Of a stretch of 53,249 nt of DNA, positions 4,825 to 49,426 are shown piece after piece. Both the position numbers and the translations under genes were made by a program. Below the pieces are notes generated by a model that did not search any database, had not been told where the DNA came from, and saw only the letters and a program-made list of their open reading frames with translations. Position 1 is the stretch's first letter, and each line of letters starts with the position of its first letter. The stretch comes from a virus (taxonomy: Duplodnaviria > Caudoviricetes). The stretch covers positions 1 to 53,249 of IMG/VR virus record IMGVR_UViG_3300040811_001901; one strand, 5' to 3'.

Positions 4825-5058
4825 TTACGGGGTCTCAACGGGGTCTTCTGCCAGAGCAGTAATTACACCAACAGCAATCTTGTGTTCAACACCTCTCGCT
4901 ACTTCAGAAACACGAATTTCTGTAGCTTCCGCATCGTATGCTCCATCAGTAAAGACTGCATTTACGCCGCGAGTGTGTGTAATTGTTCCATCTGTAAAAG
5001 TTACCTCTACAGTTGTATTTTCACCTTCTGGTGCGTTATATGTATATGTTACGCTCAT
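4825..5058 (-). CDS. small fibre-associated hypothetical protein
   Basis: ATGA overlap with the upstream fibre gene; last gene of the minus-strand operon. Confidence 0.65.
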
Positions 5059-6965
5059 TTTAATTTATCCTTTAGTTCTTCAATTTGAGCTTGTTGCTCT
5101 TTGATTGCTTCGACTAGCAAAGCACACACCCTATCGTATTGAATAGTTTTGTAATTCTCACCAGACTTAGATGTACCCATTTTGTGTGATTGGTCTTCTT
5201 TGCTATTCGGCTCCGGTGAAAACGTATCGAACGGGGCTAACTTAACTAGTTGCGGCATAACCTTTTCTACGTCTTGTGCTATCAAACCGACATCATTAAA
5301 CTTTGTCTCTGGCTTAAAACCCAATTCGTCTGCCTTATCATTCCAGTCAAACGTTACACCTTTTATTTGTTTAACTTTATCTATTGCATTTTCAATAGGC
5401 TTGATGTTGGTTTTTAATCTTTCATCCGATGAGTAAGCAGTAATATTATACTGAGCGGTGATGTTACCCCCAAAAATAGCATCGTTATTTGTTAGGTTCC
5501 AATACACCGGCCACATGTTGTTAACGGTACCCCAAGACGTAGAATCCGTAGCCTGGTTTCCGCGTAATATGTACATTAGATTACTGTTATTATGAAGCAT
5601 AGCACCGCGGTGATTGGTATCGCGGAAGTATATTGTCGGTGCATCGTTACGAATCCAGATAGCGTTGCTATCAGTAGAGCTGTTGGTTTTTATAGCAGAA
5701 AGTTCTGTACCATCTAACAAATCAGCATCCAAGCCAGAGCCAGAGCCGTCGTTTCCTGAATCCCATAGAGTATGTGTATTATCCCGCGTAAAAGAACCGC
5801 TATCTGGAAGTTTCAATCTCCATGCGTATGCTGAACTTAAAAATCCTTGAGAGCCGCCGCCTCCATAAACCAAAAACTGTTGAGCCCCGGTGCTATCTAA
5901 ACCATGTATAGAAGCTTCGTTATTATCCCCAGCATTTTGAATAGTTAATGTTTTCCAAGAGTGTGAAGTAGAGTGGGTTAAAGTAGCATCACCAAGAGTT
6001 AACGAGCTAAGAGTAATATTCGTGCCCGTGTCATTAGCATCGCTACGCAAAAAGCTAGAAGCCTGTAGCCCATCAACAGTATCAGCATCTAAACCTGAGC
6101 CAGCGCCGTCGTTTGTAGCACCCCAAAGAGTTCCTTGAACATCAGTAGATAGAGAGCCAGCAGTAGTAAGCACGGCCCTTTGAGTAGCATTACAAACAAA
6201 TGATAATTGATGGTTGGTGTACGTACCTACATGCCCCATGGTACCACCATGCCAAGAGTCATGTGCGTAAATACCCATTCGTACATTAGCTGTTTTTACA
6301 TTAACTCTTGCATGGCCGCTACCATGAATATTTAACTGCCTATTCCACCCGTCATAATTGGTATTTGCTTCTCCAATGGAAATACCTCCGTAGGTAGCAC
6401 CCGTAACTTGAAGATTTCCGCTGGTAACATCATTAGCATCGGAGCGTAGAAACTGAGAAGCACTTAAACCGCCTACAGTTCCTGCATCATAAGAAGTAGA
6501 ACCCGCGGGTCCAGTAGGTCCAGTAGGGCCAGTAGGTCCTGTTGGCCCAGGCGATCCATTACTTCCAGCAGGTCCCGTAGGTCCCGTAGGTCCGGTAGGT
6601 CCGGTAGGTCCATCTGCTCCATCAACTCCTATACTTCCATCCGCTCCAGCGGGTCCCGCAGGTCCGGTAGGTCCGGTAGGTCCGGTAGGTCCGGTAGGTC
6701 CACTTAAAGTTTGACTTGCTACATAATCAATTACAGCAGCGGAAGTAGGAAGAGCAGTATCAGTATCATGATTTGCAATTTCTTCTGACGCAGTAACTAC
6801 TGCATCATTGTGCAGTTTTGCAAAAGTAACACTCTCATCTTTAATTGCAGCAGTTTCAACAGAGGCATCTCGAAAAGTATTCTTACCCGCTTTTACATTT
6901 CCAGATACATCTGTTTCTAGCCCACGAAGCCATTCTGCTAGTTTTCTTCCTTTAGATTTTGACAT
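5055..6965 (-). CDS. tail fibre with collagen-like segment and C-terminal peptidase S74 intramolecular chaperone
   Basis: (GPT)n, repeated GSGLDAD..DG / FLRSDAND motifs, SDERLKTNI...GLIAQDV, C-terminal coiled coil. Confidence 0.85.
6501..6701 (-). repeat. collagen-like Gly-Pro-Thr tandem repeats
   Basis: Three GPT runs; exact 9-nt unit GGTCCGGTA x4 at 6661-6696. Confidence 0.9.
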
Positions 6966-6968
6966 TAA

Positions 6969-7526
6969 TTACTCCGGTTGAGTCGGCCATACTATATTAG
7001 TAGGGAATCCTGCTTGAGCGGGTATATCTCGTAGTGCTTGTCTATAGTCTAGCCACGCTTGGGAAGCCTCTGGAGTATCAGAAAATACTAAATAATCTGT
7101 TTCTCTTAAGAGATAAAAACGCTTTCCTCGTGCTCTATCAGCTAACTCTTCTTCTGTTAAATCTACGACTTCCCAATACTCTATAATATTGTCCTCTGTT
7201 TGTCGAACCGCCGAAACTAATTTTTGAGTATCAAAATTATACTCAGGCTCTGGCTCAGTAAGTATTTCTTTTAGCTTTTCTCGCACAGCCGGTTGAGGAC
7301 CAGTTAAAGACTCTGCAAGCATAGGAGGGGCATTTACAGATTTTTCCCATGTATCACAGATAACATGAGCAAAAGTTTCTATTTGATCTCTAACTGCCTC
7401 TTCCGATAAATCCCCTAATCTAAAACTTTGTACTAGCTCTTGATGATTTTCGTTATCTGAAGTATATCGTACTGATATAGAAAGAGTGTTTGCGTTATAT
7501 TCTATTATTTCATAAGTATAGTTCAT
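6969..7526 (-). CDS. tail fibre assembly chaperone-like protein
   Basis: C-terminal R..LL.ETD...W..YRQALRDIP....FP..IVWPTQP motif. Confidence 0.75.
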   Translation of the reverse strand: MNYTYEIIEYNANTLSISVRYTSDNENHQELVQSFRLGDLSEEAVRDQIETFAHVICDTWEKSVNAPPMLAESLTGPQPAVREKLKEILTEPEPEYNFDTQKLVSAVRQTEDNIIEYWEVVDLTEEELADRARGKRFYLLRETDYLVFSDTPEASQAWLDYRQALRDIPAQAGFPTNIVWPTQPE

Positions 7527-8521
7527 GCCGTATAAGTTCCTGAGTTTGCTGAGGAGCCGCTAGACGTTACATTCTTTACTAGAGTTGCTCCGATGTAAAT
7601 ATAAATATATCCTACGCCATTTCGTGAGCCATTACTGCCCGTAACTGTCACAGTAGAAGAGCCGCTATAGGCAGAAGTTCTTCCGTAGCCTCCACCACCT
7701 CCACCTCCGCCTCCGCCGGCGTTGCCGCCTCCTCCACCGCCGCCTCCGTAGCCTCCGCCGCCACCGCCACCAAAACCGTCGCCTGCAGAAGCCCCGTTTC
7801 CGCCGTAACCACCATTATATCCTAGACTATTTGCTCCATAAGCATAGGAAGTAAGAGGATTCTTTCCGCTTCCTCCTGCTGTAGATGTTCCTGCATTGCC
7901 GGGATTTCCTCTTGTCGATGCTCCTGCAGAGCCTCCTGTACCGCCGGAGCCACCGCCACCACCACCGCCAATCCATACGCTATTATCACCCGAGCCCGCG
8001 TTTCCTCCGCTATTTGCGCCACCTCCGTTGCCCCCTCTTCCATCTGAAGGATCTGCATAGCCATAACCTTCTCCACCGCCACCGCCTCCTCCACCGGCAA
8101 TTCCGAGAATTACACCTCCGCTTGTCCAGCGAACTACAGAAGCGCCGCCTCCAGGGGCTCCCCAGTCTATTCTACCACCATTACTGGGAACATTGGTACC
8201 TCGTCCTCCAGAATATAATTGAAATTGCGTGCCTCCGGGAACGGCTACTTGACAACGAGTATAGCCGCCATAACCTCTTCCTGATTGAGCGTTATAATTG
8301 CCGCTAGTATTTGCAGCACCTCTGCCCCCATAAATACGAAAATCAAGAGATACTGAAGAAGAAGCTCCGTACCACTCATTAAAGCTCATTTGAACGCCAG
8401 AGGCTTTACTAATAAGTGCTCGAATATCTGCATCATTAATAGTGCAAGTTGTACCAGAGACTCCACCAGCCTCTACATGAATATCGTTAAGACTAATTGA
8501 TCCGCTAGTCTGAATAGCCAT
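7523..8521 (-). CDS. glycine-rich fibre-tip adhesin-like protein
   Basis: Start taken at ATG 8521 (AAGGAG RBS), N-terminus MAIQTSGSISLNDI; many Gly5-9 runs. Confidence 0.7.
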   Translation of the reverse strand: MAIQTSGSISLNDIHVEAGGVSGTTCTINDADIRALISKASGVQMSFNEWYGASSSVSLDFRIYGGRGAANTSGNYNAQSGRGYGGYTRCQVAVPGGTQFQLYSGGRGTNVPSNGGRIDWGAPGGGASVVRWTSGGVILGIAGGGGGGGGEGYGYADPSDGRGGNGGGANSGGNAGSGDNSVWIGGGGGGGSGGTGGSAGASTRGNPGNAGTSTAGGSGKNPLTSYAYGANSLGYNGGYGGNGASAGDGFGGGGGGGYGGGGGGGGNAGGGGGGGGGGYGRTSAYSGSSTVTVTGSNGSRNGVGYIYIYIGATLVKNVTSSGSSANSGTYTA

Positions 8522-8523
8522 TC

Positions 8524-8564
8524 TTTCTCCTTTGGTTCGCCCCAATCTCCGAGTGAGGTAATTA
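8524..8564 (-). repeat. 41-bp intergenic element, copy 1 (hairpin plus RBS)
   Basis: 39/41 identical to 46232-46272. Confidence 0.9.
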
Positions 8565-10700
8565 TTACGCCGGTACTATAATTATGCCAAAGCCTATTAA
8601 ACGGCTACTACTTGAATGAAAATTATTATTTGTTAAAACATAATCATTGCCGGTGCTGCCGCCTTCCATAAGATAGCACAGGCTGCCACTTATATAAGCC
8701 AATATTGGTTCAACGAGACCTGATCCCCAGCCGCTTGAATATGTTGTAACAATACCACCTCCAACATTAGCACCATCTCCTGAAAAAGGTAATCCACCTA
8801 AAACCATATAAGTTCCACTAATTGATCCAGCATTAGTTAATTGAACATCAAATGTAATATGGACTACATTTCCAATTTTTCTATATCTTCCTCTTTGCGT
8901 AGAATAACTTTGCCCAGAAGCTCCACTATTTCCTGTGATCGTTGGATCCCAAGTCCCTTCCTCGTAATCGTCTAAATGATTAGCTGACCCAGTACCGCCG
9001 AGATATGCGCCGCCTGATAGGTAGAGGTCTTTAAATCTTCTACTATCTTGACCTAAATCAATCGTAGCATCGATGGAAGCGCCGTTTCTAACTGGCAATA
9101 TTTTTGCCGCCGCGCCATGACACAATAAACCAGCACCAGCAGTAGTACCTCCTTGAATATATAAACTATCTCCACCCTCAATACCAATACTACCCAAAGT
9201 GGTACCATCTTTGCGTAGAAGTACAACAGCTCCGTCATCCGTCTTTCGATTGAAAGTTGCCGCAGGGTTAGATGCTACGGTGCTTCTGACACCGCCTGTA
9301 TTAGACAGTTCTACACCGGCATCATTGACACCTGCGCTGGTAGGGTTAGCATTAGTAGTACCAACCAGCAAGTTGCCGCTGGAGTCGATGCGCATACGTT
9401 CGTTAGCGTTAGTATAAAACGCCATTGGGTAGGCACCATCAGAATATATAACTCTTGCGTAAGCACCTGAGCTAAAGCCAGCACCAGTGCTGTTGTCTAT
9501 CATGTGATAAAAATTACCACTAGAGTTTTTGTTGTGTAGACCAGCAAAACCTGTAGTAGCTTCGCTTCTTATCTGAGCCGCTGTTGTGCCATTAATATGT
9601 AACGGTGTAGCAGGACTCGCGGTGCCAATACCAACGCTGCCGCTAGAGTCAATAACCATTCTGCTGCTGACTGTTCCATTGCCTGTATAAAATTTAAACC
9701 CACCACCATTTATTCCTTCAAGCAAACCGTATTGAGTCGTTGTAGAGCCAAACGATATTGAAGGTGCGCCGGTAGATTTTCCTAAAATTAACTGTGATCC
9801 TGCTGCAGAATATACTTGTAACGGGCCGCCGCCGCCTTGAGTCATTCCAGTAGTGCCAATACCAACGTTGCCGCCGTAGGTCATGTTTAAAATATTACTA
9901 TTAACAGCGGAAGCAAAAGTATGAGCTATCTTGGTTGTATCGCTTGTTACGCCCGAGTAATAAGTAATTCCATATGAATCACTAGACTTGCCTATGGTAT
10001 ATGCAGAGATAGCGCTGTTATAAGAGAAAGCTAACTTACCATCAACCACTAATTTTTGGTCTGGACTCGTAGTGCCAATCCCAACGTTGCCATTAGTATG
10101 AATTCTCATTCTTTCGGTATAAGAACCTCCGCCCATAAATTTAACTGGACCGGCACCACTCCACCCATACTCGGCTTCATTAGAAGAGTTAATTCGAACT
10201 AGCGTTCTAGCATTAGCACTAGTATCATAAGATCTAAGGTCATAATTATTATCTACAAAAACATGCCCAGCAGATACATTTAAACCTTTATTAAAATTCC
10301 AATCGTCATTCGTACCATTGTAAGTCAGCGTAGCACTTGCACCATCAACTGTAATACCAGCACCATTTGCAGCGGCTGCGTTTGCCGCGCCACTTGCAAG
10401 AGTAATATTCAAATCATCAACTGTCATTGTAGTCGAGTTGATAGTCGTAGTAGTACCATCGACTTGTAAATTACCCGCAACTACTAAAGTTCCAGTATTA
10501 TCGCCTACGGCCGCAGGGTCGATAGTAAATGTAGAAGGCCCAGCAATATAGCCAGTAGTAGTAATATTTCCAGAAGTTAGCGTGGTTACTGTAGCAGCGG
10601 ACGCAGTTGTTGCCCCAATAGTAACACCATCAATGGCTCCTCCATCAATGTCTACTTCTGGGTCTACAATCTGTGTTGGAAATTTTCCTAAAAATGGCAT
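8565..10700 (-). CDS. tail fibre with GNVGIG repeats and LDDYEEGTW-type C-terminal tip domain
   Basis: GNLQVDGTTTTINST shaft, ERMRI..GNVGIGT repeats, RFKDLYLSG, LDDYEEGTW. Confidence 0.8.
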   Translation of the reverse strand: MPFLGKFPTQIVDPEVDIDGGAIDGVTIGATTASAATVTTLTSGNITTTGYIAGPSTFTIDPAAVGDNTGTLVVAGNLQVDGTTTTINSTTMTVDDLNITLASGAANAAAANGAGITVDGASATLTYNGTNDDWNFNKGLNVSAGHVFVDNNYDLRSYDTSANARTLVRINSSNEAEYGWSGAGPVKFMGGGSYTERMRIHTNGNVGIGTTSPDQKLVVDGKLAFSYNSAISAYTIGKSSDSYGITYYSGVTSDTTKIAHTFASAVNSNILNMTYGGNVGIGTTGMTQGGGGPLQVYSAAGSQLILGKSTGAPSISFGSTTTQYGLLEGINGGGFKFYTGNGTVSSRMVIDSSGSVGIGTASPATPLHINGTTAAQIRSEATTGFAGLHNKNSSGNFYHMIDNSTGAGFSSGAYARVIYSDGAYPMAFYTNANERMRIDSSGNLLVGTTNANPTSAGVNDAGVELSNTGGVRSTVASNPAATFNRKTDDGAVVLLRKDGTTLGSIGIEGGDSLYIQGGTTAGAGLLCHGAAAKILPVRNGASIDATIDLGQDSRRFKDLYLSGGAYLGGTGSANHLDDYEEGTWDPTITGNSGASGQSYSTQRGRYRKIGNVVHITFDVQLTNAGSISGTYMVLGGLPFSGDGANVGGGIVTTYSSGWGSGLVEPILAYISGSLCYLMEGGSTGNDYVLTNNNFHSSSSRLIGFGIIIVPA

Positions 10701-13700
10701 TTTATGCTCCTTTCAATGCTGCTACTTCGGCTTTGAGTTCTTGAATCATTGCTTGTTGTTCTTGGATGGCTCCGGTCAAAACTGCCACAAACTTCATGTA
10801 GTCAACGCCATACATCGGATCGTCCAAATCATCATCAATAGGGTTTACACGATTAGCAAACTCAGGTGTTTCCATCAATTCCTGAGCAATAAAACCGCTG
10901 TCCTCTGCCCCATTAGATTTCCATGAATACTTGCGAGGCTTTAGCTTCATTACATCAACAAGCGCGTTGTCATAATCTCTGATGTTTTCTTTTAGGCGAG
11001 CGTCTGAGGATGGGTTATAGGAAGTAGTTGAAGTTGTAGCGCGAATGCTACCTACTGCTACGCCATCAAAGCGCTCAAAACTAATCAAGGTTCCTGTATT
11101 TCCGCCAGTAATATAATCGTTGTGAATTAACACAGGAGTAAAGTTGGTTCCAGAGCTATTTTGAAGAACATAAACCCCAGTACCACTGCCGCCGTTACTT
11201 GCAGTAATTTTTCCTGAAGCTGAAGTAGTACCAACCAGCAAGTTGCCGCTGGCATCAAGTCGCATCCTTTCTGTTAGCTCATCAGTAGTCGTAATAGCTG
11301 TGCCGTGGGTATAGAACCTGATCTGCGTACCCCAATCGCCTCCGTTCTGACGAGCAAAGCCGATACCAGCGGAAAGAGTATCTTCCGCGCCAGCTAATAT
11401 CGCCATTTCTGAGTTTGTTCCTGATAGGCCACTAGTAGACGTTAATCTTATAGCGCCCCCATCAAAAGCAGAGCCAGAAGTTTTTGAGTTAGTGTTTGGA
11501 GTTAACTTAACAGTAAGAGGATTGAAAAGCGTCGTCGTACCAATACCAACGCGGCTGCTGTCATCGATTTTTACCGCAACATTCGGGCCATTTAGAAATG
11601 AGTAAATGTGTTTATTTGCGGCAGTAGTTTGAATCTGAAATCCGTTAGAAACCCCAGAAATACCACTAAAAAGAGATGAACTTGCCACTCCAGATGCAGA
11701 TACCTGCGTTATATTTCCGTCTTGATCTATTGAGCAGGAACCGGCTTGACCGAAGTAAGTTCCTCCAACTATCACGTTGCCCAACGTGTCGAGACGCATA
11801 CGTTCGGTTAGCGTGGAAGTGCCGCTTTGTCTTGTGTAAAGTTTGAGTGCTGGATCGCCCGTTCCTTCAATAGCGGCGTTAACATTTCCTGAGCCAATAG
11901 TTCCGTCATACCATTGAATTTTTTGTCCTCTATCTACGCTAACGTTGCCGCTGGAGTCTATGCGCATGGCCTCAGTGCTATTAACAGTAAACCTCATGTG
12001 ATTATCACTATGGAAATACTGCAACATGCCAATATTGCTACTGTCTGCGTCGGCAAAGTTAATCTGAGAGTTCCCTGCTGTATTTGTGCTCGTAAGAATT
12101 AACTGAGCTAAGTCACCGCCAGAGGTAAGTCCAATTTGTGCATTACCTGATCCTGTTCGTGCATCAATCAAATAAGCAGGACTCGCAGTGCCAATACCAA
12201 CATTCTCTGACGCATCAATCGTAATCGCAGTAGATGTAGCGTTGTCATCAATACCCGTCGAAGCAAAACTCGAAATACTGCCACCATTTATAACATCACC
12301 CGAGATTTGATCATTTGCAAAAGTTAAAGTTTTACTTGACAAGTCGAGAGCAGCTTTGAGTTGTGCGTCTCCAACTGTATTGTCCGAAGGAGTACCAATA
12401 TCTACTGCGTCTCCAATTACAAGTATATAATCAATTACATCACTTGCTGTAAGTGCTGAAGCAAATACAATATTCGAACCGGATACAGTGTATGCGCTTT
12501 CAGGGGCCTGGGTTACGCCATTTAGAGATACAATTAAATTTCTTGCACTTTCAGGAATATATGCCGAGCCGCTTACTGTCAGAGCATAGGTATCCGTAGC
12601 TGACGTAGTAATTGAATCTATCAGCTGAAATGCTCCGACTTGTGGGGATTTTCCTATGAATGGCATTGTTTATGCTCCTTTTAGTGTTGCTACTTCGGCT
12701 TCAAGTGTTTCAATTCGTGTTACTGCTTCTTGTAGAGCCGCAGTCAGCAGAGGTACCAGCTTAGACTGGTCTATGCCTTGATACTCTGGGTTGCCTTCAT
12801 CGTCTACTGCATCCTTAGCGCCTGTAATAGCTTCTGGCACAACGTCTTGAACTTCGTGTGCAATAAAGCCGTCTACGGTCTTATCTGGATCAGCAATGAA
12901 GTTAAAGCGGTGTACAGGGATTTGCTTGAGACGATCAATGCCGTTATCAAGGTTAACTACGTTTTCTTTGAGGCGGTAGTCTGATAAACTCTGGTATGCG
13001 GTAGTAGAGCCATTTGTTACTATTTGCCCAACCTTGCCGTTTGGATTATAAAAAGCAGCTACGGCATCTGCTCCAGATAATGTAGTGGCAGCTTTGAGGA
13101 TGCCTCTGTTGTTGTCTTTGTATAGCACTATTCCGTTTGATGGAGTTCCTGAATTTGTTGTACCAACCAGCACGTTGCCGCTGGAGTCTATGCGCATACG
13201 TTCTGTGGCGCTAGTACCAAAGCTCATAAAGCTGGCTTCTCTGTTCCAAATATACGCCGCGCTGGCAAAAGTAATTAACTCTAAACCATCACTAGCTGTT
13301 GACCCTGTTACGCTGTCTGTAATGTGTACTGAAGACCCGCCACCAGCCGCACTATGAACCTGTAGTTTTCTTCCGTATCCAGCAACGGGGGCAACACCAA
13401 TACCAACATTGCCGCTGGCGTCGATACGCATACGTTCTGGAGTTGTTGGTCCTGTATAAAACCGCGTAAAACCATGCGACAAAATATTTAAAGCATCGGG
13501 AGCGTTGTGCTGAAAACCTATGTATCCACGATATGCCTCGTTGCCTGAAGTACCATCCGCAAACATTAGATAGTTTGCATCGGAAGTAGCACTAGCCGCT
13601 ATGGTAATACCGCCTTGGTCGGGGGCGGCAACCACCAAGTTATCAGCGTAGTAAGAGCTTGGACTCGTAGTGCCAATCCCAACTTTGCCGCTGGCGTCGA

Positions 13701-14229
13701 TACGCATTCCTTCTGTAAAGCCAGATTTAAAAAAGCGTAATGCGTTGTCAGCGTTGTTGAATAAAACACCGCCTACTAAATCTGCATCTGAATCACCAAA
13801 TGTTATGCCAGCGTTTCCTGTATTACCGCTTACAACTGAAATATAAGTGCTTGTGTTGGTTGCGGTAATATCTTCTACTTGAAGTTTTGAAACAGAGTTA
13901 GGACTCGCAGTGCCAATACCAACGTTGCCGCTGGAGTCGATACGCATACGCTCTGTAGAGGCTGTATTAAACGTAAAGGCTCTACGGTTCGCTGTTGTTG
14001 CGTGTGATTCATGGTAAAACTTTAAGTGAAAATCCTTTTGTCCATTAGTGCCAGGATTACCAAAATAAATTCCACTTTCGCCGGTTGAAGCAGTTAATAA
14101 ACTAAGACCAACATTGCCGCTGTTTTCTAAAACAAGTTCATCAGCATCGGCATCCGCACTAACACTGCCTGCACTTGCAGAAAACACATTTAGTTTTCCG
14201 TCTGGACTCGCAGTGCCAACACCAACATT
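9354..14229 (-). repeat. dispersed in-frame ~50-bp repeat family (ERMRIDSSGNVGIGTxSP), about 14 full or partial copies here and 2 more at 47204-47502
   Basis: Reference copy 13901-13953; exact 29-nt match 9354-9382 = 11224-11252; exact 24-nt match 10062-10085 = 13660-13683. Confidence 0.85.
10702..12666 (-). CDS. tail fibre with GNVGIG repeats and peptidase S74 chaperone
   Basis: VSLNGVTQ.P domain, TGIDDNATS, ERMR repeats, SDARLKENI...GFIAQEL, coiled coil. Confidence 0.85.
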   Translation of the reverse strand: MPFIGKSPQVGAFQLIDSITTSATDTYALTVSGSAYIPESARNLIVSLNGVTQAPESAYTVSGSNIVFASALTASDVIDYILVIGDAVDIGTPSDNTVGDAQLKAALDLSSKTLTFANDQISGDVINGGSISSFASTGIDDNATSTAITIDASENVGIGTASPAYLIDARTGSGNAQIGLTSGGDLAQLILTSTNTAGNSQINFADADSSNIGMLQYFHSDNHMRFTVNSTEAMRIDSSGNVSVDRGQKIQWYDGTIGSGNVNAAIEGTGDPALKLYTRQSGTSTLTERMRLDTLGNVIVGGTYFGQAGSCSIDQDGNITQVSASGVASSSLFSGISGVSNGFQIQTTAANKHIYSFLNGPNVAVKIDDSSRVGIGTTTLFNPLTVKLTPNTNSKTSGSAFDGGAIRLTSTSGLSGTNSEMAILAGAEDTLSAGIGFARQNGGDWGTQIRFYTHGTAITTTDELTERMRLDASGNLLVGTTSASGKITASNGGSGTGVYVLQNSSGTNFTPVLIHNDYITGGNTGTLISFERFDGVAVGSIRATTSTTSYNPSSDARLKENIRDYDNALVDVMKLKPRKYSWKSNGAEDSGFIAQELMETPEFANRVNPIDDDLDDPMYGVDYMKFVAVLTGAIQEQQAMIQELKAEVAALKGA

Positions 14230-14373
14230 CTCACTAGCATCAATCGTAATCGCCGTTGAAGTTGCATTATCATCAATACCCGTCGAAGAAAAATTAGTAA
14301 GCGGATAGGAAAGATCCGCGGTTTCGACTGTACCCGCTGGAATTGCTAGACTGTTGAGGCGTGTGATTGCCAT
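12670..14373 (-). CDS. tail fibre with GNVGIG repeats and peptidase S74 chaperone
   Basis: Five repeat units; SDYRLKENV...GFIAHEVQ...IDQSKLVPLL. Confidence 0.85.
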   Translation of the reverse strand: MAITRLNSLAIPAGTVETADLSYPLTNFSSTGIDDNATSTAITIDASENVGVGTASPDGKLNVFSASAGSVSADADADELVLENSGNVGLSLLTASTGESGIYFGNPGTNGQKDFHLKFYHESHATTANRRAFTFNTASTERMRIDSSGNVGIGTASPNSVSKLQVEDITATNTSTYISVVSGNTGNAGITFGDSDADLVGGVLFNNADNALRFFKSGFTEGMRIDASGKVGIGTTSPSSYYADNLVVAAPDQGGITIAASATSDANYLMFADGTSGNEAYRGYIGFQHNAPDALNILSHGFTRFYTGPTTPERMRIDASGNVGIGVAPVAGYGRKLQVHSAAGGGSSVHITDSVTGSTASDGLELITFASAAYIWNREASFMSFGTSATERMRIDSSGNVLVGTTNSGTPSNGIVLYKDNNRGILKAATTLSGADAVAAFYNPNGKVGQIVTNGSTTAYQSLSDYRLKENVVNLDNGIDRLKQIPVHRFNFIADPDKTVDGFIAHEVQDVVPEAITGAKDAVDDEGNPEYQGIDQSKLVPLLTAALQEAVTRIETLEAEVATLKGA

Positions 14374-18389: not shown

Positions 18390-18409
18390 TTAAATCTCTC
18401 CATGATGAA

Positions 18410-18438
18410 ATTATAACAAAGGGGACATTTTATGTCAA
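18410..18438 (-). promoter_or_regulatory. consensus sigma70 promoter for the fibre operon
   Basis: TTGACA(18438-18433)-17 nt-TATAAT(18415-18410), with A-rich UP region. Confidence 0.85.
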
Positions 18439-18456
18439 GTTTTATTTTTTTGCTGG

Positions 18457-34488: not shown

Positions 34489-34531
34489 ACATTTGTCCTT
34501 AAAAGAAAGTTGTTATTGATTTATACCACAT

Positions 34532-34560
34532 ATTATAACGAAAGGCAGCAAAAATGTCAA
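34532..34560 (-). promoter_or_regulatory. consensus sigma70 promoter for chaperone/TMP/tip genes
   Basis: TTGACA-17-TATAAT. Confidence 0.85.
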
Positions 34561-34584
34561 GAAATATTTTTACCACCTGGAAAG

Positions 34585-42591: not shown

Positions 42592-42619
42592 CTTTGAATC
42601 TATTACTTTTAATAACGAA

Positions 42620-42648
42620 ATTATATCGTGAGGGAACTAAATTGTCAA
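42620..42648 (-). promoter_or_regulatory. consensus sigma70 promoter for the head operon
   Basis: TTGACA-17-TATAAT. Confidence 0.85.
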
Positions 42649-42670
42649 CTACTATTTTTCTGTGGTCCCT

Positions 42671-43975
42671 TCAGAAGCCCGTAGAAGAAGTTTCAAATGA
42701 ATATAACGCATATCGAAGTGCATCTGCCATGTGTGATGCCATATTGTGTTTTGGTTTTTCTCGTGCTAGATTTGGATTGGGGTCCCACTGATACTGGTCA
42801 AGAGCAGAAAGACTTTCCTTGCATCTTTGGTCTACTACCAATTTATCATTGTCAACAATGCCAGCCACATGAGCAATACCATCAAGTACAGACTTCTTGG
42901 CATTTGTGGTAGTAATATCAAAGTTCTGAGCAAAGTCAAATCGAGTTTGCTGAGCCGCTGAGTCAATGAAGATATAATCAATATCCCACTTTTCCATAAG
43001 TCTACGAATCTCTGTCGCGTGTTGTTCAGTAGTTTTTTCAGCATCTAAGTACTCGTCGAGTAAATAGTACTTTTCTTCGTCCCAGTCGTACGCCAAAACG
43101 CAAAAGGCAGTGGGATCTCTATACCCCACATCAAGCCCAGCGAATATATCCATGTTTGAAATTTGGAATTCTTCCAAGTTCTCAATACACTCTTCGTGGT
43201 TAAAGTTCCAAATCTGTCCCTCATAGGTATTGAAATCGGCTTCATATTCTTGTTTGAATTCGGCTTCGGACATACTTTTTCGAGCTTCCGAGATATCGCT
43301 TTCAGACATGCGAGGATTATCCTTATAAGTTGCTCGTATCGAAGCCCACTCTGGAAATTCATCTGTAAACCCCCTATTAAAAAATTCTGCAAACCAGTTA
43401 TTTTTTCCTCGAGGAGTAGAAATAAAAAGTGCTTTTGAATTATCTTTGTCAAGTGTAGGACGTAGTGCAACATTGAAAGCTTCTTTTCCATCTGCCAACG
43501 CTGCTTCGTCAAATATAATAAGATCGTAACTTCTGCCTACACAGGAATCGACCTGATTGATGGATCCCATCCGAATGGTGGAACCGTTAGTTAGCTCAAT
43601 TACTTTATCTTTCGCATTATCCTTTGCAACCTCTAAATCAAAATGTTTGATAAGCTGTCGCTGAAGGTCGAAAGAAATCTGAGACAAGGCGTAGTTCGGA
43701 GACATAATTAATATGTGTGAACCAGGAACTAGTGATACTAGCTGCCCAATTATATTTGCGATATACGTTTTGCCTTGCCTTCGAGAAATAGCTGCCGTGA
43801 CAAAACGGTATTTATTGTTATTAATCGCATTTATGATCGCCATTTGAGACGGAAGAGGTGTAACGCCGAGTAGATCCAAATAAGGATCTACTGGAAGTTT
43901 GAGAAACCTCGTCTCAGATTGAAAATCGACAATGTGCTCGGAGATTAAATCTCTTCTACTTATTTCTACTGCCAT
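42671..43975 (-). CDS. terL: terminase large subunit
   Basis: SRRQGKT Walker A, LIIFDEAA Walker B, ISTPRG, GLDVG, HMADALRY. Confidence 0.95.
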   Translation of the reverse strand: MAVEISRRDLISEHIVDFQSETRFLKLPVDPYLDLLGVTPLPSQMAIINAINNNKYRFVTAAISRRQGKTYIANIIGQLVSLVPGSHILIMSPNYALSQISFDLQRQLIKHFDLEVAKDNAKDKVIELTNGSTIRMGSINQVDSCVGRSYDLIIFDEAALADGKEAFNVALRPTLDKDNSKALFISTPRGKNNWFAEFFNRGFTDEFPEWASIRATYKDNPRMSESDISEARKSMSEAEFKQEYEADFNTYEGQIWNFNHEECIENLEEFQISNMDIFAGLDVGYRDPTAFCVLAYDWDEEKYYLLDEYLDAEKTTEQHATEIRRLMEKWDIDYIFIDSAAQQTRFDFAQNFDITTTNAKKSVLDGIAHVAGIVDNDKLVVDQRCKESLSALDQYQWDPNPNLAREKPKHNMASHMADALRYALYSFETSSTGF

Positions 43976-45972: not shown

Positions 45973-46227
45973 TTAAGGCGTAGGTGCCTCTGCTTGTGCT
46001 GCTTGCCATGCTGAAATAATATCAGCAGTGTGTACAGCGGCGCAGATCGCCTGTACTTCTGCACTTTCATTTGTTGTATCATCGCCTGGATTTATTACGT
46101 GACGATGAAAACTTCTTGAAAGTTCTACATCGTCTCGCTCAATAACCGTAGCTGTTCGTACTTGTACGTGCTTAAATGCGCCTATAATTTCGATTTTATC
46201 TTCTTCTGTTCTCTCTGTTAAAGCCAT
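45973..46227 (-). CDS. small fibre-associated protein (MALTE..EEDKIE...SRSFHRHV)
   Basis: AAGGAG RBS within the 41-bp element; follows an LDDYEEGTW fibre. Confidence 0.75.
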   Translation of the reverse strand: MALTERTEEDKIEIIGAFKHVQVRTATVIERDDVELSRSFHRHVINPGDDTTNESAEVQAICAAVHTADIISAWQAAQAEAPTP

Positions 46228-46231
46228 TGCT

Positions 46232-46272
46232 TTTCTCCTTTGGTCCGCCCCAATCTCCGAGTGGGGTAATTA
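46232..46272 (-). repeat. 41-bp intergenic element, copy 2
   Basis: 39/41 identical to 8524-8564. Confidence 0.9.
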
Positions 46273-48192
46273 AGTTCTTTGATATGTTGCATGAAAATCC
46301 AGTCTAGCTCCACTAACATCTGAATATCTTATTGCCTGATCCCCATGTCTATAAAAAAGTACATTTGCTCCAGCGTTTTCAATTACAGATACAAGTGTGT
46401 CACCCATACTATCATTCATGTTAGTATAGCCATGTCCTCCATGGCCCGCATAAAAGCCATTAACATTTGAGGTAAACGGAATATTTAAAGCAACATTAGC
46501 AGTATTTGTTGTAGTTGGAAACACTATAGATGCACTGATATAAACGAGAGATCCTATTTTAATATAATAACTTCTATTCGTAGCCACAGTCAGACCCTGT
46601 CCGCTCGCATCAGCAGCACTCCAAGTCCCTTCTTCGTAATCGTCTAACGCATTAGCGGCGGCTGTGTCGCCATTGAACTTCATCCCGTCTGCGTCAATTC
46701 GTGCTGCCTCACTGCTTCCCGTTACAAATTGGTGCGCTTTGTTGCTTGGAACCGTATATGTAATCGGATAGCCTGAATATAAGTGTAATCCTGTTGTGGC
46801 TCGAGTGTCATAAGGCAAGGTCAGGGAACCGAAAACAGTGGCATCAGTATTGAACATCCATTGTATGCCGCCGTCTGTGCCAGTAGCACCTGACTTCAAT
46901 CTATAATATGCTGTAGTTGAGTCGCCTAAAACTAAATGCCCCGAAGTGTTAAATCTGCCTACCTCTGAGCGCACGCCGGAGTGGTATTTTTGAATGACTA
47001 GTGGTGAAGCAGTGCCTGGTGTTGTATCTGTGTCACCGTATAAGATGATTGACTTAGATACACCATTACCTGACGACAATAATTCTAAAATTGCGCTTCT
47101 ATCATTAACAGAGTCAATAGCTCTTACAGATAGAGTTGTATTACCGCTAGAATTTAATTGTAACGTTTTACTTGAAGAGATTACTGGTGATACTGAAGAT
47201 ACACCAATACTAACGTTGCCGCTGTCGTCGATACGCATACGTTCCGTTGAGGTATTTCCTGTAAAGAATTTTATAGATCGACCACCAACTCCTGGCCTAC
47301 ACTGAAGCACAAGGTCTCCAGAGCTAAAGTCAGTGACATTAGCAGCTGCTGAAAAAACACCTCCTAATCCTGCAGTAGGAACACCCGCAGTTAAATCGTA
47401 GCGAGCGACGACAAATCCTTGATTGTCTATTCCAAATGTTATATTAGAATCCGGAGCCCCTGTACCAATATTAACTCCACCATCAGCGATACGCATGCGT
47501 TCTGTTCTATCGGTCGTAAAAATAACATCGTCTGGGCCGTCTGCGGCTACGTATAAATCGTAACCTGAAGTAGAAACGATTTGCGGCATTCCAGTTGCAG
47601 CACCGGGATTTGTTCTTGTACTACCTGCGCCTCGTATTATTAATTGATTGGCAGAGTCGTTTTTAATTACAAGACCGGTCCCTGTGCTTGCGTCAGGTTC
47701 TTCAATTAAAATATTTCCGTCATAGACATGAAGTAGTTCTACAGGATCTATACCAATGCCTAAGTTTTTATTAAATGACCATGCATCATTCGTAGATCCG
47801 TATGTAAGAGCTGCACTAGCACCATCAACTGTAATACCCGCTCCATTTGCCGCCGCAGCATTTGCTGCTCCAGAAGCAAGAGTAATATTTAAATCATCTA
47901 CAGTCATTGTAGTTGAGTTGATAGTTGTAGTAGTGCCATCAACTTGCAGATTGCCTGCAATTACAAGAGTTCCAGTATTGTCTCCTACTGCTGCAGGGTC
48001 GATAGTAAATGTAGAGGGTCCGGCAATATATCCGGTAACAGTAATATTACCAGAGGAATCAATAGTAAGTGCAGTAGTACTGGCGTTATCATCAATACCA
48101 GTAGAGGAAAAATCAGTAAGAGGGTAGTCTAAATCGGCGGAGACAATTGTATCGTCTGGAATGCCGAGACTATTAATAGTAGTACGAGCCAT
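46270..48192 (-). CDS. tail fibre paralogue with LDDYEEGTW tip domain
   Basis: Shares its N-terminus with the 12670-14373 product and a shaft segment with the 8565-10700 product. Confidence 0.8.
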   Translation of the reverse strand: MARTTINSLGIPDDTIVSADLDYPLTDFSSTGIDDNASTTALTIDSSGNITVTGYIAGPSTFTIDPAAVGDNTGTLVIAGNLQVDGTTTTINSTTMTVDDLNITLASGAANAAAANGAGITVDGASAALTYGSTNDAWSFNKNLGIGIDPVELLHVYDGNILIEEPDASTGTGLVIKNDSANQLIIRGAGSTRTNPGAATGMPQIVSTSGYDLYVAADGPDDVIFTTDRTERMRIADGGVNIGTGAPDSNITFGIDNQGFVVARYDLTAGVPTAGLGGVFSAAANVTDFSSGDLVLQCRPGVGGRSIKFFTGNTSTERMRIDDSGNVSIGVSSVSPVISSSKTLQLNSSGNTTLSVRAIDSVNDRSAILELLSSGNGVSKSIILYGDTDTTPGTASPLVIQKYHSGVRSEVGRFNTSGHLVLGDSTTAYYRLKSGATGTDGGIQWMFNTDATVFGSLTLPYDTRATTGLHLYSGYPITYTVPSNKAHQFVTGSSEAARIDADGMKFNGDTAAANALDDYEEGTWSAADASGQGLTVATNRSYYIKIGSLVYISASIVFPTTTNTANVALNIPFTSNVNGFYAGHGGHGYTNMNDSMGDTLVSVIENAGANVLFYRHGDQAIRYSDVSGARLDFHATYQRT

Positions 48193-48413
48193 TAGATTTT
48201 ATCCAATAGAGCTACGCCCATAGTGACAACTAGCCCGCTTAGAAAGATAATTACGCCACCAGCAACTTTCATCAGTTTGCCTTCGATTCTTTCTAAAGTT
48301 TCGTCTATTTCTTCAAGCCGATTGAAGGTAGTTTTCCATCGTTCTTCGCATTGTGCATCATGTGTTGACATGAAGACTTCAAGCTTATGAACTTTCTCGT
48401 CAAGATTCTCCAT
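48192..48413 (-). CDS. small coiled-coil protein with C-terminal TM helix
   Basis: H.AQCEERW coiled coil followed by VAGGVIIFLSGLVVTMGVALL. Confidence 0.65.
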   Translation of the reverse strand: MENLDEKVHKLEVFMSTHDAQCEERWKTTFNRLEEIDETLERIEGKLMKVAGGVIIFLSGLVVTMGVALLDKI

Positions 48414-48861
48414 TTATTAATTTATCCATCAACTTTCCATAGTTGCCTTGGCCAAATGGAGTACTACCGTCGTTAATCTGAACATTTGTTTGATTACGAA
48501 TATTTGTAGTGGCTTTTTCAGCATCCGCCTGGGCCTTGATCTCATCCATTCTCATTCTATGAGCCATTTGAAGAAGATCGGCTAAGTCTTTATTAGAATA
48601 CATGCCAGTATCCTGTGCTTCTTCAAGTTTGGATTGTATCATCTCATCTAAGGCGGATGCAATATTATTCTTATTGCGAAAGCCCATGTCAAGATAAACT
48701 GTGTCAATATACTTTTTAACTTCGCGTTTATTTAAAGCTTCTACAACCCTGTTTTCAGGAACCTGGAGATGTTCGCAAACGCCGCGAATATTCCCGAACT
48801 GTAAATACGAATTCGCAATTTCAAGTCCCTCTGGGGAAATTGTAGTTACTTCTTTACTCAT
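48400..48861 (-). CDS. terS: terminase small subunit (T5-like)
   Basis: ISPEGLEIANSYL HTH-like start, YIDTVYLD.G.RN, KDLADLL, QTNVQIN, NYGKLM. Confidence 0.7.
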   Translation of the reverse strand: MSKEVTTISPEGLEIANSYLQFGNIRGVCEHLQVPENRVVEALNKREVKKYIDTVYLDMGFRNKNNIASALDEMIQSKLEEAQDTGMYSNKDLADLLQMAHRMRMDEIKAQADAEKATTNIRNQTNVQINDGSTPFGQGNYGKLMDKLINGES

Positions 48862-48868
48862 AATGTGT

Positions 48869-48897
48869 ATTCTACCTTAAGAGGGTTAAAATGTCAA
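48869..48897 (-). promoter_or_regulatory. sigma70 promoter, probably giving a leaderless terS mRNA
   Basis: TTGACA-17-TAGAAT; only 7 nt to the ATG and no SD sequence. Confidence 0.75.
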
Positions 48898-48907
48898 GAA
48901 TTAATTT

Positions 48908-49426
48908 TCAGCTGGTTATAAAACTCGGAGGCGTTGGCCACGGTATTACATTTTCACTTGAATAATTTTCCGGGGTTGCTGCAATCATATTTGGTAGATT
49001 TCTCAGAGCTTGTCTGTATTCTCTTGCTTCTGCGATTTCAAGTTCGGTAAGGTCAGCATCCGGCATTTGTGTCCAATCACATACCGCTAGTTTATTATCT
49101 CTTAGAAATCTTATATAATTTAACCAAGCTGTTTGATCATACGTCCACTCAGACCCCGTCCAGACCCCTGCTATATTTGGGGGAGGCCCTCGATATTCCC
49201 AAGAAGAGGTGGAAAAATCCCAATAATAATTTTTTAGAAATCCACTTTGCTGAGAATCTTCAGGACCAAATACAGGCCAAACAAAATCAGAGTGAATATG
49301 AATAATATACTCTTCAGAGTTTGTTGGCGAAAGACCCTCTTCTGGATTATTGGGCATAGCCATGTCTAGTTGACTTATGTGACCAGTTGTAGGATGTACA
49401 TAGGCTATATGTGTTATATCAGACAT
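48908..49426 (-). CDS. tail fibre assembly chaperone-like protein
   Basis: IR..RD.KL..CDWTQMPD...YRQALRNLP...WPTPP. Confidence 0.75.
   Translation of the reverse strand: MSDITHIAYVHPTTGHISQLDMAMPNNPEEGLSPTNSEEYIIHIHSDFVWPVFGPEDSQQSGFLKNYYWDFSTSSWEYRGPPPNIAGVWTGSEWTYDQTAWLNYIRFLRDNKLAVCDWTQMPDADLTELEIAEAREYRQALRNLPNMIAATPENYSSENVIPWPTPPSFITS

Follow-up and report, generated by a model that had tools for sequence, protein, structure and literature searches.

A virus represented by IMG/VR record IMGVR_UViG_3300040811_001901 was analyzed over the entire record (53,249 bp, hereafter referred to as the window), which is estimated to comprise about 55% of the genome. Two tail fiber genes of this uncultured aquatic phage, designated fiber 1 and fiber 2, end with dissimilar tips, each of which is enclosed by two stretches of DNA that are near-identical between the genes: a 5′ arm encoding the peptide LDDYEEGTW, and a 3′ arm carrying a hairpin behind the tip. 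These arms are quite probably the two borders of an exchangeable tail fiber tip module, which is very common in aquatic phages. Judging from the sequences of their fiber loci, related phages exchange the tip as a unit between the peptide and the hairpin. The features concerned are as follows.

8565..10700, minus strand: fiber 1 gene, 711 aa, consisting of shaft, junction peptide and tip (open reading frame, ORF; tail fiber families phrog_9942, E-value 1.4e-23, and phrog_18345)
8976..9035, minus strand: pre-arm block of fiber 1, RFKDLYLSGGAYLGGTGSANH, which together with the 5′ arm forms an 87-nt block common to many phages
8949..8975, minus strand: 5′ arm of fiber 1, encodes LDDYEEGTW (sequence pattern search)
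8568..8948, minus strand: tip 1, 127 aa, all-beta head domain, probably receptor-binding (AlphaFold2 model, Foldseek)
8524..8564, minus strand: 3′ arm of fiber 1, orphan copy (second stop codon 8562–8564; hairpin 8540–8558 with GGA loop 8548–8550; CGAAC 8535–8539; AAGGAG 8527–8532)
46270..48192, minus strand: fiber 2 gene, 640 aa (ORF, PHROG search)
46621..46647, minus strand: 5′ arm of fiber 2, encodes LDDYEEGTW (sequence pattern search)
46273..46620, minus strand: tip 2, 116 aa, diverged member of the family of tip 1 (72-tip alignment, BLASTP)
46228..46272, minus strand: 3′ element of fiber 2 (TAA 46270–46272; hairpin 46248–46266 with GGA loop 46256–46258; CGGAC 46243–46247; AAGGAG 46235–46240)
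10287..10574 and 47767..48054, minus strand: shaft module common to both fibers (288 nt, 81% DNA identity; also matches structural proteins of cyanomyoviruses)

An earlier note on this DNA, made from the sequence alone, had described the two arms, the strong divergence of the tips and the shared block of the shafts, and all of these observations were reproduced. The 5′ arms differ at 1 of 27 bases (26/27 identical), both encode LDDYEEGTW, and the pattern matches only these two places in the window, with 0.00 matches expected by chance. The 3′ arms (8524–8564 and 46232–46272) read TAATTACC[T/C]CACTCGGAGATTGGGGCG[A/G]ACCAAAGGAGAAA, are identical at 39 of 41 positions and have no further copies in the window; an 18-base core matches only twice at up to three mismatches (0.01 expected), and none of 100 shuffled sequences gave two matches. 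The tips share 22% identity globally; by BLASTP, 37% identity was detected over the first 75 residues including the motif, and no similarity was found in the C-terminal half. Between the shared shaft module and the arms, the regions of fiber 1 and fiber 2 are unrelated.

Tips and shafts of related fibers

The proposal of the earlier note that the tip is a swappable cassette bounded by the two arms was substantiated between genomes. For pair comparisons, 155 distinct complete loci were used, which were collected via the motif or by similarity to fiber 1, with exact duplicates removed. Fiber 2 and the locus of contig L216 are 93.6% identical over 628 nt, with the identity ending one base past the arm; the tips that follow (348 and 361 nt) are unalignable, and the identity resumes one base before the stop codon (86% over 304 nt). 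The same pattern was observed in the pairs L144/L188, L139/L174 and L017/L023. Fiber 1 is 88.5% identical to L253 over 261 nt up to the arm, after which the tips are unrelated, and the right-hand element is absent in L253. In total, five fiber pairs are 85–97% identical up to the 5′ arm and continue into unrelated tips, and in the aligned pairs identity stops 1–12 nt past the arm.

Most alignments to homologous loci end at the 5′ arm: 63 of the 71 blastn high-scoring segment pairs that reach the arm of fiber 1 from upstream end between −3 and +12 nt of the last arm base, 48 of them exactly there. The matches of GenBank pelagiphages and of a roseophage to the pre-arm block stop at position 8949.

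The histories of tip and shaft are incongruent, since pre-arm and tip similarity are uncorrelated over 11,935 pairs (Spearman −0.005; P 0.57). Tips average 15% identity across the loci. Four pairs are at least 85% identical in the 123 nt before the arm, all with a tip identity below 21%, and no pair with a similar shaft and a similar tip together was found among the 155 loci. In the 40 pairs with at least 70% upstream identity, the tips are at most 26.8% identical. The reciprocal case is represented by L176/L178, in which the arm, tip and hairpin are 86–96% identical and neither the shafts nor the downstream genes rise above noise; L147/L173 and L008/L011 are of the same kind. Tip 1 itself recurs at 73–77% identity on shafts that are about 30–35% identical overall, and at 59% identity on a 1,244-residue protein.

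A second joint was observed inside the shaft of fiber 2. Contig L214 is 95.8% identical over positions 750–1298 of the fiber 2 locus, and L216 is 93.6% identical over positions 1254–1881, the two overlapping solely on the following segment.

47203..47247, minus strand: second module junction of fiber 2, TERMRIDDSGNVSIG (motif repeated in all four long fibers; repeat families D3 and D5–D9)

The underlying 48–78-nt DNA motif, encoding (T)ERMRID(S)SGNVGIGT, occurs at least 10 times across the four long fibers, with copies at 9342–9425, 9612–9659, 10056–10133, 11223–11295, 11527–11574, 11757–11809, 11942–11997, 12178–12225, 13144–13977 and 47196–47268. In one freshwater contig, a 291-nt match to tip 1 (8684–8974, 11 differences) is followed by unlike sequence; no inference was drawn from it.

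The tip family and the two borders

The earlier note had further claimed conservation of the 5′ arm as DNA, with the shared shaft serving as an internal control. This part of the claim did not hold. When the comparison was restricted to degenerate codons with identical amino acids, the two fibers were found to use the same codon at 7 of 8 positions in the arm and at 52 of 88 in the shaft (binomial P = 0.10), and the shaft control thus fails as a statistical argument. Across the 155 loci, synonymous sites in the arm are no more conserved than their upstream neighbors: for L, D, Y, E and G, codon identity is below that of amino acid-identical codons immediately before the arm, and only for T is it above. 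An identity of 26/27 also arises between unrelated arms: among 143 of them encoding exactly LDDYEEGTW, 5.1% of the 10,153 pairs share at least 26 of 27 bases, and so do 4.4% of the 2,850 pairs in a subset matched for G–C content. Between any two such genes, 18 or more of the 27 arm bases coincide (typically 22–23), and often about 87 bases are similar. The 5′ arm is conserved because the protein needs the peptide LDDYEEGTW, which does not vary and forms the opening strand of the tip fold; the similarity of the DNA is a by-product.

The same peptide was found in fibers of the GenBank pelagiphages HTVC134P and HTVC119P, roseophage CRP-804 and the Methylophilales myovirus Melnitz-3, in all of which it is followed by a tip of 118–135 residues with the same landmarks, Y-x-K-I-G and L-P-F. 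The module occurs in podo-, myo- and siphoviruses whose hosts are very different. In viral contigs, at least 121 stretches were matched by a degenerate DNA pattern for DDYEEGTW, and a search of viral contigs with fiber 1 yielded at least 603 stretches, of which 586 were confirmed among the matches listed. In addition, a species-representative bacterial genome collection contained 60 loci (L261–L320) of the tip family with exact DDYEEGTW, including those of Phyllobacterium, Polynucleobacter, Novosphingobium, Limnohabitans and Aminobacter isolates. Devosia is also among the bacterial chromosomes or bins that carry the tip family, presumably as part of prophages, and the hairpin element was observed in only 5 of these 60 loci, all on short or metagenome-bin contigs.

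An alignment of 72 tips shows no variation at the motif residues D, D, Y, E, E, G and W (columns D23–G28 and W30) or at one further G and one further P. Consistent matches of these tips to a Pfam family were not found, and a search of the ESM Atlas with the tip returned unnamed viral clusters only. In the literature searched, DDYEEGTW and its shorter forms were not found. The AlphaFold2 model of tip 1 built from the alignment is all-beta and of medium confidence (predicted local distance difference test score, 79.6; predicted TM score, 0.73), with YEEGTW as the first long beta strand. The best Foldseek match of the model is the C-terminal domain of Det7 tailspike gp208 (6f7k; E-value, 2.5e-4; TM, 0.66 over 136 columns), which was also found by a profile search (E-value, 8e-4). 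Weaker Foldseek matches (TM, 0.33–0.48) include viral attachment heads, namely reovirus sigma1 and the receptor-binding proteins of lactococcal and Listeria phages. Both tips are diverged members of one large unannotated all-beta fiber-head family and, since the predicted fold matches a tailspike C-terminal domain and, more weakly, attachment heads, the tip likely binds a receptor.

In Pelagibacter phage HTVC119P (MH598806), a perfect 200-nt tandem duplication (L004:2959–3358) includes the pre-arm block and the LDDYEEGTW arm. Since 200 nt do not make a whole number of codons, the annotated tail fiber coding sequence of this phage ends 15 codons past the first arm, and the real tip is encoded behind the second copy in another frame. 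The duplication is due either to the assembly or to a genuine slip at the junction.

At the other border, the 3′ arm of fiber 2 is followed by a small gene, which is the usual neighbor of the tip family.

45973..46227, minus strand: small conserved gene, 84 aa, phrog_6228 (E-value, 9.9e-31)

A phrog_6228 homologue is located behind the tip in 127 of the 155 loci. No match to this gene was found in Pfam (searched with the window copy) or in the PDB (searched with a 46-sequence profile). The same 3′ element as in fiber 2 was detected behind the tips of six related contigs (L007, L008, L010, L011, L012 and L216), always with the phrog_6228 gene next; because L007 and L012 are identical over the region, these represent five independent versions. 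In L008, L011 and L012, the 45-nt element is 98–100% identical to the fiber 2 copy, and the gene behind it is 71–82% identical, which indicates that the element is conserved at the nucleotide level.

In distant phages, the sequence of the element changes and its shape is kept: a stop codon, a 7–8-bp stem, a GGA-containing loop, CGGAC (or TAGTCAG) and a ribosome-binding site. A hairpin with GGAC or GTCAG behind it was found in 53 of the 155 loci and in none of the 155 shuffled controls. In an alignment of 31 copies, compensatory changes are present in all seven stem pairs, and the covariation score was reached by none of 500 shuffles; 84.8% of the cells are paired compared with 52.5% in shuffles, a percentage that is partly circular, as the hairpins were chosen by a script requiring a stem. 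The evidence free of this selection consists of the GGA loop, the strand bias, the positions of new model hits and the fold predicted by RNAalifold. Loop positions G13 and A14 are invariant, and G12 is present in at least 90% of the 31 copies. A covariance model built from these copies matches the two arms alone within the window; in 486 kb of other loci it gave 61 hits, all on the fiber strand, 57 of which lie within 25 nt past a tip stop codon, 40 of those 57 being new to the model. In a second set of 44 hits, 91% of the cells are paired, several of them as U–G pairs, and the covariation score is 0.94 vs 0.22 in shuffles (reached by 0 of 500). RNAalifold independently predicts the same helix.

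No Rfam family was detected at the gathering threshold in the whole window, nor up to an E-value of 10 in the 201 nt at 46150–46350. Thermodynamic folding of each arm alone is not better than that of shuffled sequences (z = 1.24 and 0.37). Promoter-like sites in the element are no commoner than in shuffles, and none is common to both arms; terminator-like sites are absent from the element, with no T run after the stem. A resemblance to T3/T7-type promoters was considered and dropped, as the stems covary and the phage has lambda-like tail genes and sigma-70-like promoter repeats.

The 3′ arm is thus a covarying hairpin combined with the translation start region of the small gene, and its conservation has a functional explanation other than recombination. 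Of the claim in the earlier note that this arm is also maintained at the DNA level, the nucleotide-level conservation was upheld (98–100% vs 71–82%), but recombination as its cause was not, given the covarying stem and the translation start region. The role that we infer for the hairpin is a putative one, and the hairpin joint appears to be undescribed so far.

At fiber 1, the element is less well preserved. The orphan copy scores 26.5 bits in the covariance model (E-value, 1.7e-5) vs 33.3 bits in fiber 2 (E-value, 1.3e-7), has a G–U pair in the stem and contains an A where at least 90% of the 31 aligned copies have G. The TAA of the arm (8562–8564) is a second stop codon right behind the TAA of the fiber gene itself (8565–8567), and at fiber 2 the corresponding TAA ends the gene. 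Behind the orphan arm, the small gene is replaced by a glycine-rich gene, for which the arm now serves as ribosome-binding region.

7523..8521, minus strand: glycine-rich gene, 332 aa from the ATG at 8521, largely poly-glycine (phrog_26746)

A homologue of this gene in contig G005 is 72% identical from the ATG and has a different upstream region without the element, and the likeness of fiber 1 to the fiber 2 locus stops at ATGGCT. With the doubled stop codon, the orphan element and the ATGGCT limit, the right-hand side of fiber 1 looks like a junction scar. Either the tip was imported together with the right-hand element, or a loss of sequence between two ATGGCT starts later removed the small gene.

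Reuse of this joint by other genes was also observed. Among 21 downstream genes unlike phrog_6228, nine start with MAL or MAI, as the phrog_6228 gene does, against a background of at most 10.7% in which the phrog_6228 genes themselves are still included; this suggests joints of unrelated genes inside the first codons of the small gene. Such M-A-L/M-A-I starts were noted in L138, L149, L160, L183, L186, L205, L211 and L069, as well as at 8513–8521 of the window. In L166 (771–900), a short remnant behind the hairpin still resembles the start of the small gene (MALTEE...), and an unrelated gene of 365 residues comes next, which looks like another decayed joint. Of the 19 scanned non-phrog_6228 downstream genes, three are homing-type nuclease genes located directly behind the tip: L188:3310–3800 (Endonuclease_7; E-value, 9e-23), L138:1840–2385 (HNH_3) and L186:958–1491 (HNH_3 and NUMOD4). 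The Endonuclease_7 gene of L188 is flanked by two hairpin copies, and in L188, as at fiber 1, the hairpin is followed by a foreign gene.

Proposed exchange mechanism, rival explanations and genome setting

The exchange probably proceeds as follows. The left border is LDDYEEGTW, the first beta strand of a 100–135-residue all-beta head at the fiber end, and the right border consists of the 7–8-bp GGA-loop hairpin behind the stop codon, followed by CGGAC, a ribosome-binding site and the start of the phrog_6228 gene (M-A-L-T). In a cell infected by two such phages, homologous recombination on the left, within the shaft or junction, and on the right, within the hairpin/start region, would replace the tip, and selection would retain only chimeras jointed at the domain border. 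Recombination is the mechanism that we infer for the exchange. In the window, fiber 2 represents the canonical unit, and fiber 1 a tip with a slightly decayed orphan right element joined at ATGGCT to the unrelated glycine-rich gene, a state that looks like the scar left by a tip exchange or by the small gene being deleted later.

Several observations weigh against this model. The data establish the arms as borders and not as physical crossover points, because selection on chimeras leaves sharp limits at domain edges wherever the crossovers fell. The arms are not unique, since other fiber junctions exist, such as the ERMRID motif. That no pair combines a similar shaft with a similar tip may partly be an effect of sampling, as the loci were gathered via the motif or fiber 1 and exact duplicates were dropped. 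The hairpin is weak in fiber 1, where its fold energy is not better than that of shuffles, and is absent from about two thirds of the loci. The argument for receptor binding comes from the resemblance of predicted folds. No recombinant was seen forming in the mapped source data, which are uninformative in this respect: all 24 listed runs proved to be short assembled contigs, and the repeats within the fibers gave hundreds of spurious joints.

The stricter form of the idea in the earlier note, in which both arms are held by selection as dedicated crossover sites and the two fibers exchange tips mutually, accounts for the 26/27 and 39/41 identity of arms that enclose unalignable tips, and for a 3′ arm that is 98–100% identical next to a gene at 71–82% in four related contigs. 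We nevertheless consider it improbable, since the synonymous sites of the arm are not more conserved across the 155 loci, the comparison of 7/8 with 52/88 identical codons gives P = 0.10, 26/27 identity occurs in 4–5% of unrelated pairs, and the covariation of the 3′ stem in other phages agrees with a structure rather than with an unchanging recombination site. Signs of tip exchange between the two fibers of this genome were not found: the 3′ arm of fiber 1 is no closer to that of fiber 2 than to those of other contigs, and the arms are direct repeats 37,672 bp (37.7 kb) apart, so that a single crossover would delete head and tail genes and a tip swap between fibers 1 and 2 could be achieved only by a double event over 27 and 41 bases. 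An old duplication of the fiber within the genome, with the arms as slow-evolving leftovers and the tips diverged in place by point mutation without any swap, is scarcely more likely. The shaft module common to both fibers (81% DNA identity), the detectable homology of the tips over their first 75 residues and the functional grounds for constancy of both arms would fit such a history; however, the closest relatives (L216 and L253) bear unrelated tips right after near-identical pre-arm sequence, the tip of fiber 1 is found on other shafts, shaft and tip are incongruent among relatives, the regions between shaft module and arms are unrelated, and the second stop codon and missing small gene at fiber 1 look like a junction scar. 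Programmed diversification, by a diversity-generating retroelement or an invertase switch of the Mu G-segment type, might be expected from two alternative, repeat-flanked tips in one genome, but the repeats are direct, not inverted, and we regard it as extremely improbable. Neither a reverse transcriptase, an invertase nor a tip template repeat was found among 44 window ORFs searched against PHROGs and 24 searched against Pfam; as the record is only about 55% complete, their absence from the phage is not proven.

Homing endonucleases could drive the exchange: their genes would insert at the hairpin/start-codon joint, and break repair would co-convert the adjacent tip. This is compatible with the three nucleases among the 19 scanned non-phrog_6228 downstream genes (L138, L186 and L188), and with the nuclease of L188 being placed between two hairpin copies beside a tip that differs from that of its nuclease-free relative L144, the shaft of which is 95% identical. 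No nuclease gene lies beside either fiber in the window, only 3 of the 155 loci have one, and most swaps (L216, L253, L139/L174 and L017/L023) occurred without one nearby, which makes this a rather unlikely general cause, although nuclease-driven co-conversion may contribute to the exchange. Alternatively, the 3′ arm could mainly be a translational operator, with the GGA loop, CGGAC and GGAG forming a platform for a CsrA/RsmA-like or phage RNA-binding protein and the role of border being incidental. According to passages in PMC13443453 and PMC4894983, CsrA recognises GGA-containing hairpin loops and represses translation. The loop GGA, CGGAC directly behind the stem and GGAG at the ribosome-binding site correspond to features of a CsrA/RsmA-type site in a comparison made by eye, as a resemblance of sequence. 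The constancy of G13, A14 and G12, although the loop was outside the selection rule, the location of all model hits on the coding strand and the several U–G pairs point in the same direction. Against it, the hairpin is absent in 78 of the 127 loci that retain the small gene, no Rfam family matches and the CsrA motif was matched by eye. A predominantly regulatory role is possible, and we would give it a minor share of the probability, larger than that of the other alternatives.

The PHROG matches of the window ORFs indicate a siphovirus with a lambda-like tail module, including a tape measure protein (1,329 aa), minor tail proteins and the central fiber J (2,797 aa), in addition to a portal, a terminase and a protease–capsid fusion. 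A RusA-like or PDDEXK nuclease and a 5′–3′ exonuclease are encoded at the left end of the window. Several side fibers are placed behind central fiber J. According to Pfam, three fibers (5055–6965, 10702–12666 and 12670–14373) terminate with a Peptidase_S74 chaperone domain, an end that fiber 1 (8565–10700) and fiber 2 (46270–48192) lack. The first of the three is a collagen-repeat fiber, and a tail-fiber-assembly-like gene (6969–7526) is located between it and the glycine-rich gene. Fiber 2 lies away from the other fibers, flanked by the genes for the small (48400–48861) and large (42671–43975) terminase. The window segment 45973–48413 is a unit of fiber 2 and the small gene between the terminase genes. 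In T7-like pelagiphages and roseophages, the structural module is closed by the same fiber and small-gene unit, so that mobility of the complete unit is possible. The phage is present at 95–96% of words in estuary samples. Repeats of about 41 nt (family D13) precede operons at 18409–18449, 34531–34571, 42619–42659 and 48868–48908; on the gene strand they resemble, by eye, a sigma-70 promoter (TTGACA, 17 nt, TATAAT).

Significance and comparison with known systems

The host range of uncultured aquatic phages is among the hardest things to read from sequence. Exact borders allow tips to be catalogued apart from shafts, tip types to be linked to hosts and the reshuffling of tips to be followed in populations; they also mark where chimeric fibers could be spliced in marine model phages that can be cultivated, so as to probe receptor specificity. 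The GGA hairpin with its covarying stem is a candidate for a new RNA element, with a defined site in late operons.

Alternative fiber tips in one genome are known from the G segment of phage Mu and the C segment of phage P1, which are invertible tip cassettes that need inverted crossover sites and an invertase. The virus studied here resembles them in possessing alternative tips, but its repeats are direct, both fiber genes are complete, and no invertase was found among the scanned ORFs.

In the medium-confidence model, the tip may share the all-beta fold of the C-terminal domain of Det7 gp208 (PDB 6f7d and 6f7k). The sequence identity between them is 16%, and Det7 lacks the LDDYEEGTW junction, the alignment starting at G-T/S-W/F. 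Moreover, the Det7 domain sits behind the beta-helix body of a tailspike, whereas the tip described here is carried by a fiber.

Passages in PMC10579305 describe host-recognition modules common to distant families of Alteromonas phages, and passages in Mizuno et al. 2014 (PMC3909814) describe hypervariable fiber genes in marine 'metaviromic islands'. As in these cases, marine phages of different families share or vary fiber genes while the rest of the genome is conserved. In the passages concerned, the two reports deal with whole fiber and chaperone modules or with under-recruiting regions, and not with this tip family, its peptide junction or the hairpin.

In the PeSL mobile regulatory cassettes of T4-type phages, as described in parts of Arbiol et al. 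2010 (PMC2839356) and Comeau et al. 2014 (PMC4122927), a strong sigma-70-like early promoter is combined with a terminator. As in the PeSL cassettes presented there, a short conserved intergenic stem-loop element marks sites at which unrelated genes are inserted or replaced; at copies of the element analyzed here, such joints are seen in the glycine-rich gene behind fiber 1, the L188 nuclease between two copies, the differing next gene of L176/L178 and the 9 of 21 foreign downstream genes with a MAL or MAI start. Unlike PeSLs, this element has no promoter consensus above the level of shuffles and no T-tract or terminator; it is found in late structural operons, has a covarying stem and is tied to one gene junction. 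We tentatively suggest, as a rather unlikely idea, that hairpin, CGGAC, ribosome-binding site and ATG GCN (M-A-L-T) form a portable connector of aquatic podo-, myo- and siphoviruses, a late-gene counterpart of the PeSL, by which tips, homing nucleases and other genes could plug in behind any fiber of the family, and which might persist partly for that reason and also as a GGA-hairpin translation operator. If so, together with the LDDYEEGTW junction it would provide unrelated phage families with a shared standard for their host-range modules.

The closest parallel to the exchange itself is provided by the T-even type fibers, in which, according to passages in Trojet et al. 2011 (PMC3157838), variable receptor-recognising segments lie between strongly conserved motifs, with exchanges within or near these motifs. 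As in the mosaic gp37/gp38 fibers presented in that source, the variable segment is flanked on both sides by conserved sequence. Likewise, near-identical relatives have this segment replaced, with its limits at the conserved motifs, and shaft and tip have incongruent histories (here, in five pairs and three reciprocal cases). Fibrous repeat motifs serve as further junctions in the T-even fibers, as stated in the same passages of PMC3157838, and their counterpart here is the ERMRID motif. Tip exchange might change host specificity in the present case, the predicted tip fold resembling receptor-binding heads. Fiber recombination at conserved motifs is an already known general principle, and the exchange described here would be a further example of a well-known route of host change in phages. 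It differs from that of the T-even fibers in that the protein family is unrelated and the tip has no Pfam family, the exchanged unit is the whole terminal domain, the right border is a non-coding hairpin and start region instead of a protein motif, and the module spans podo-, myo- and siphoviruses of very different hosts. The new elements are a very large unnamed tip family with exact borders, spread over three tail morphologies, the complete decoupling of tip and shaft, and the covarying GGA hairpin at the 3′ border.

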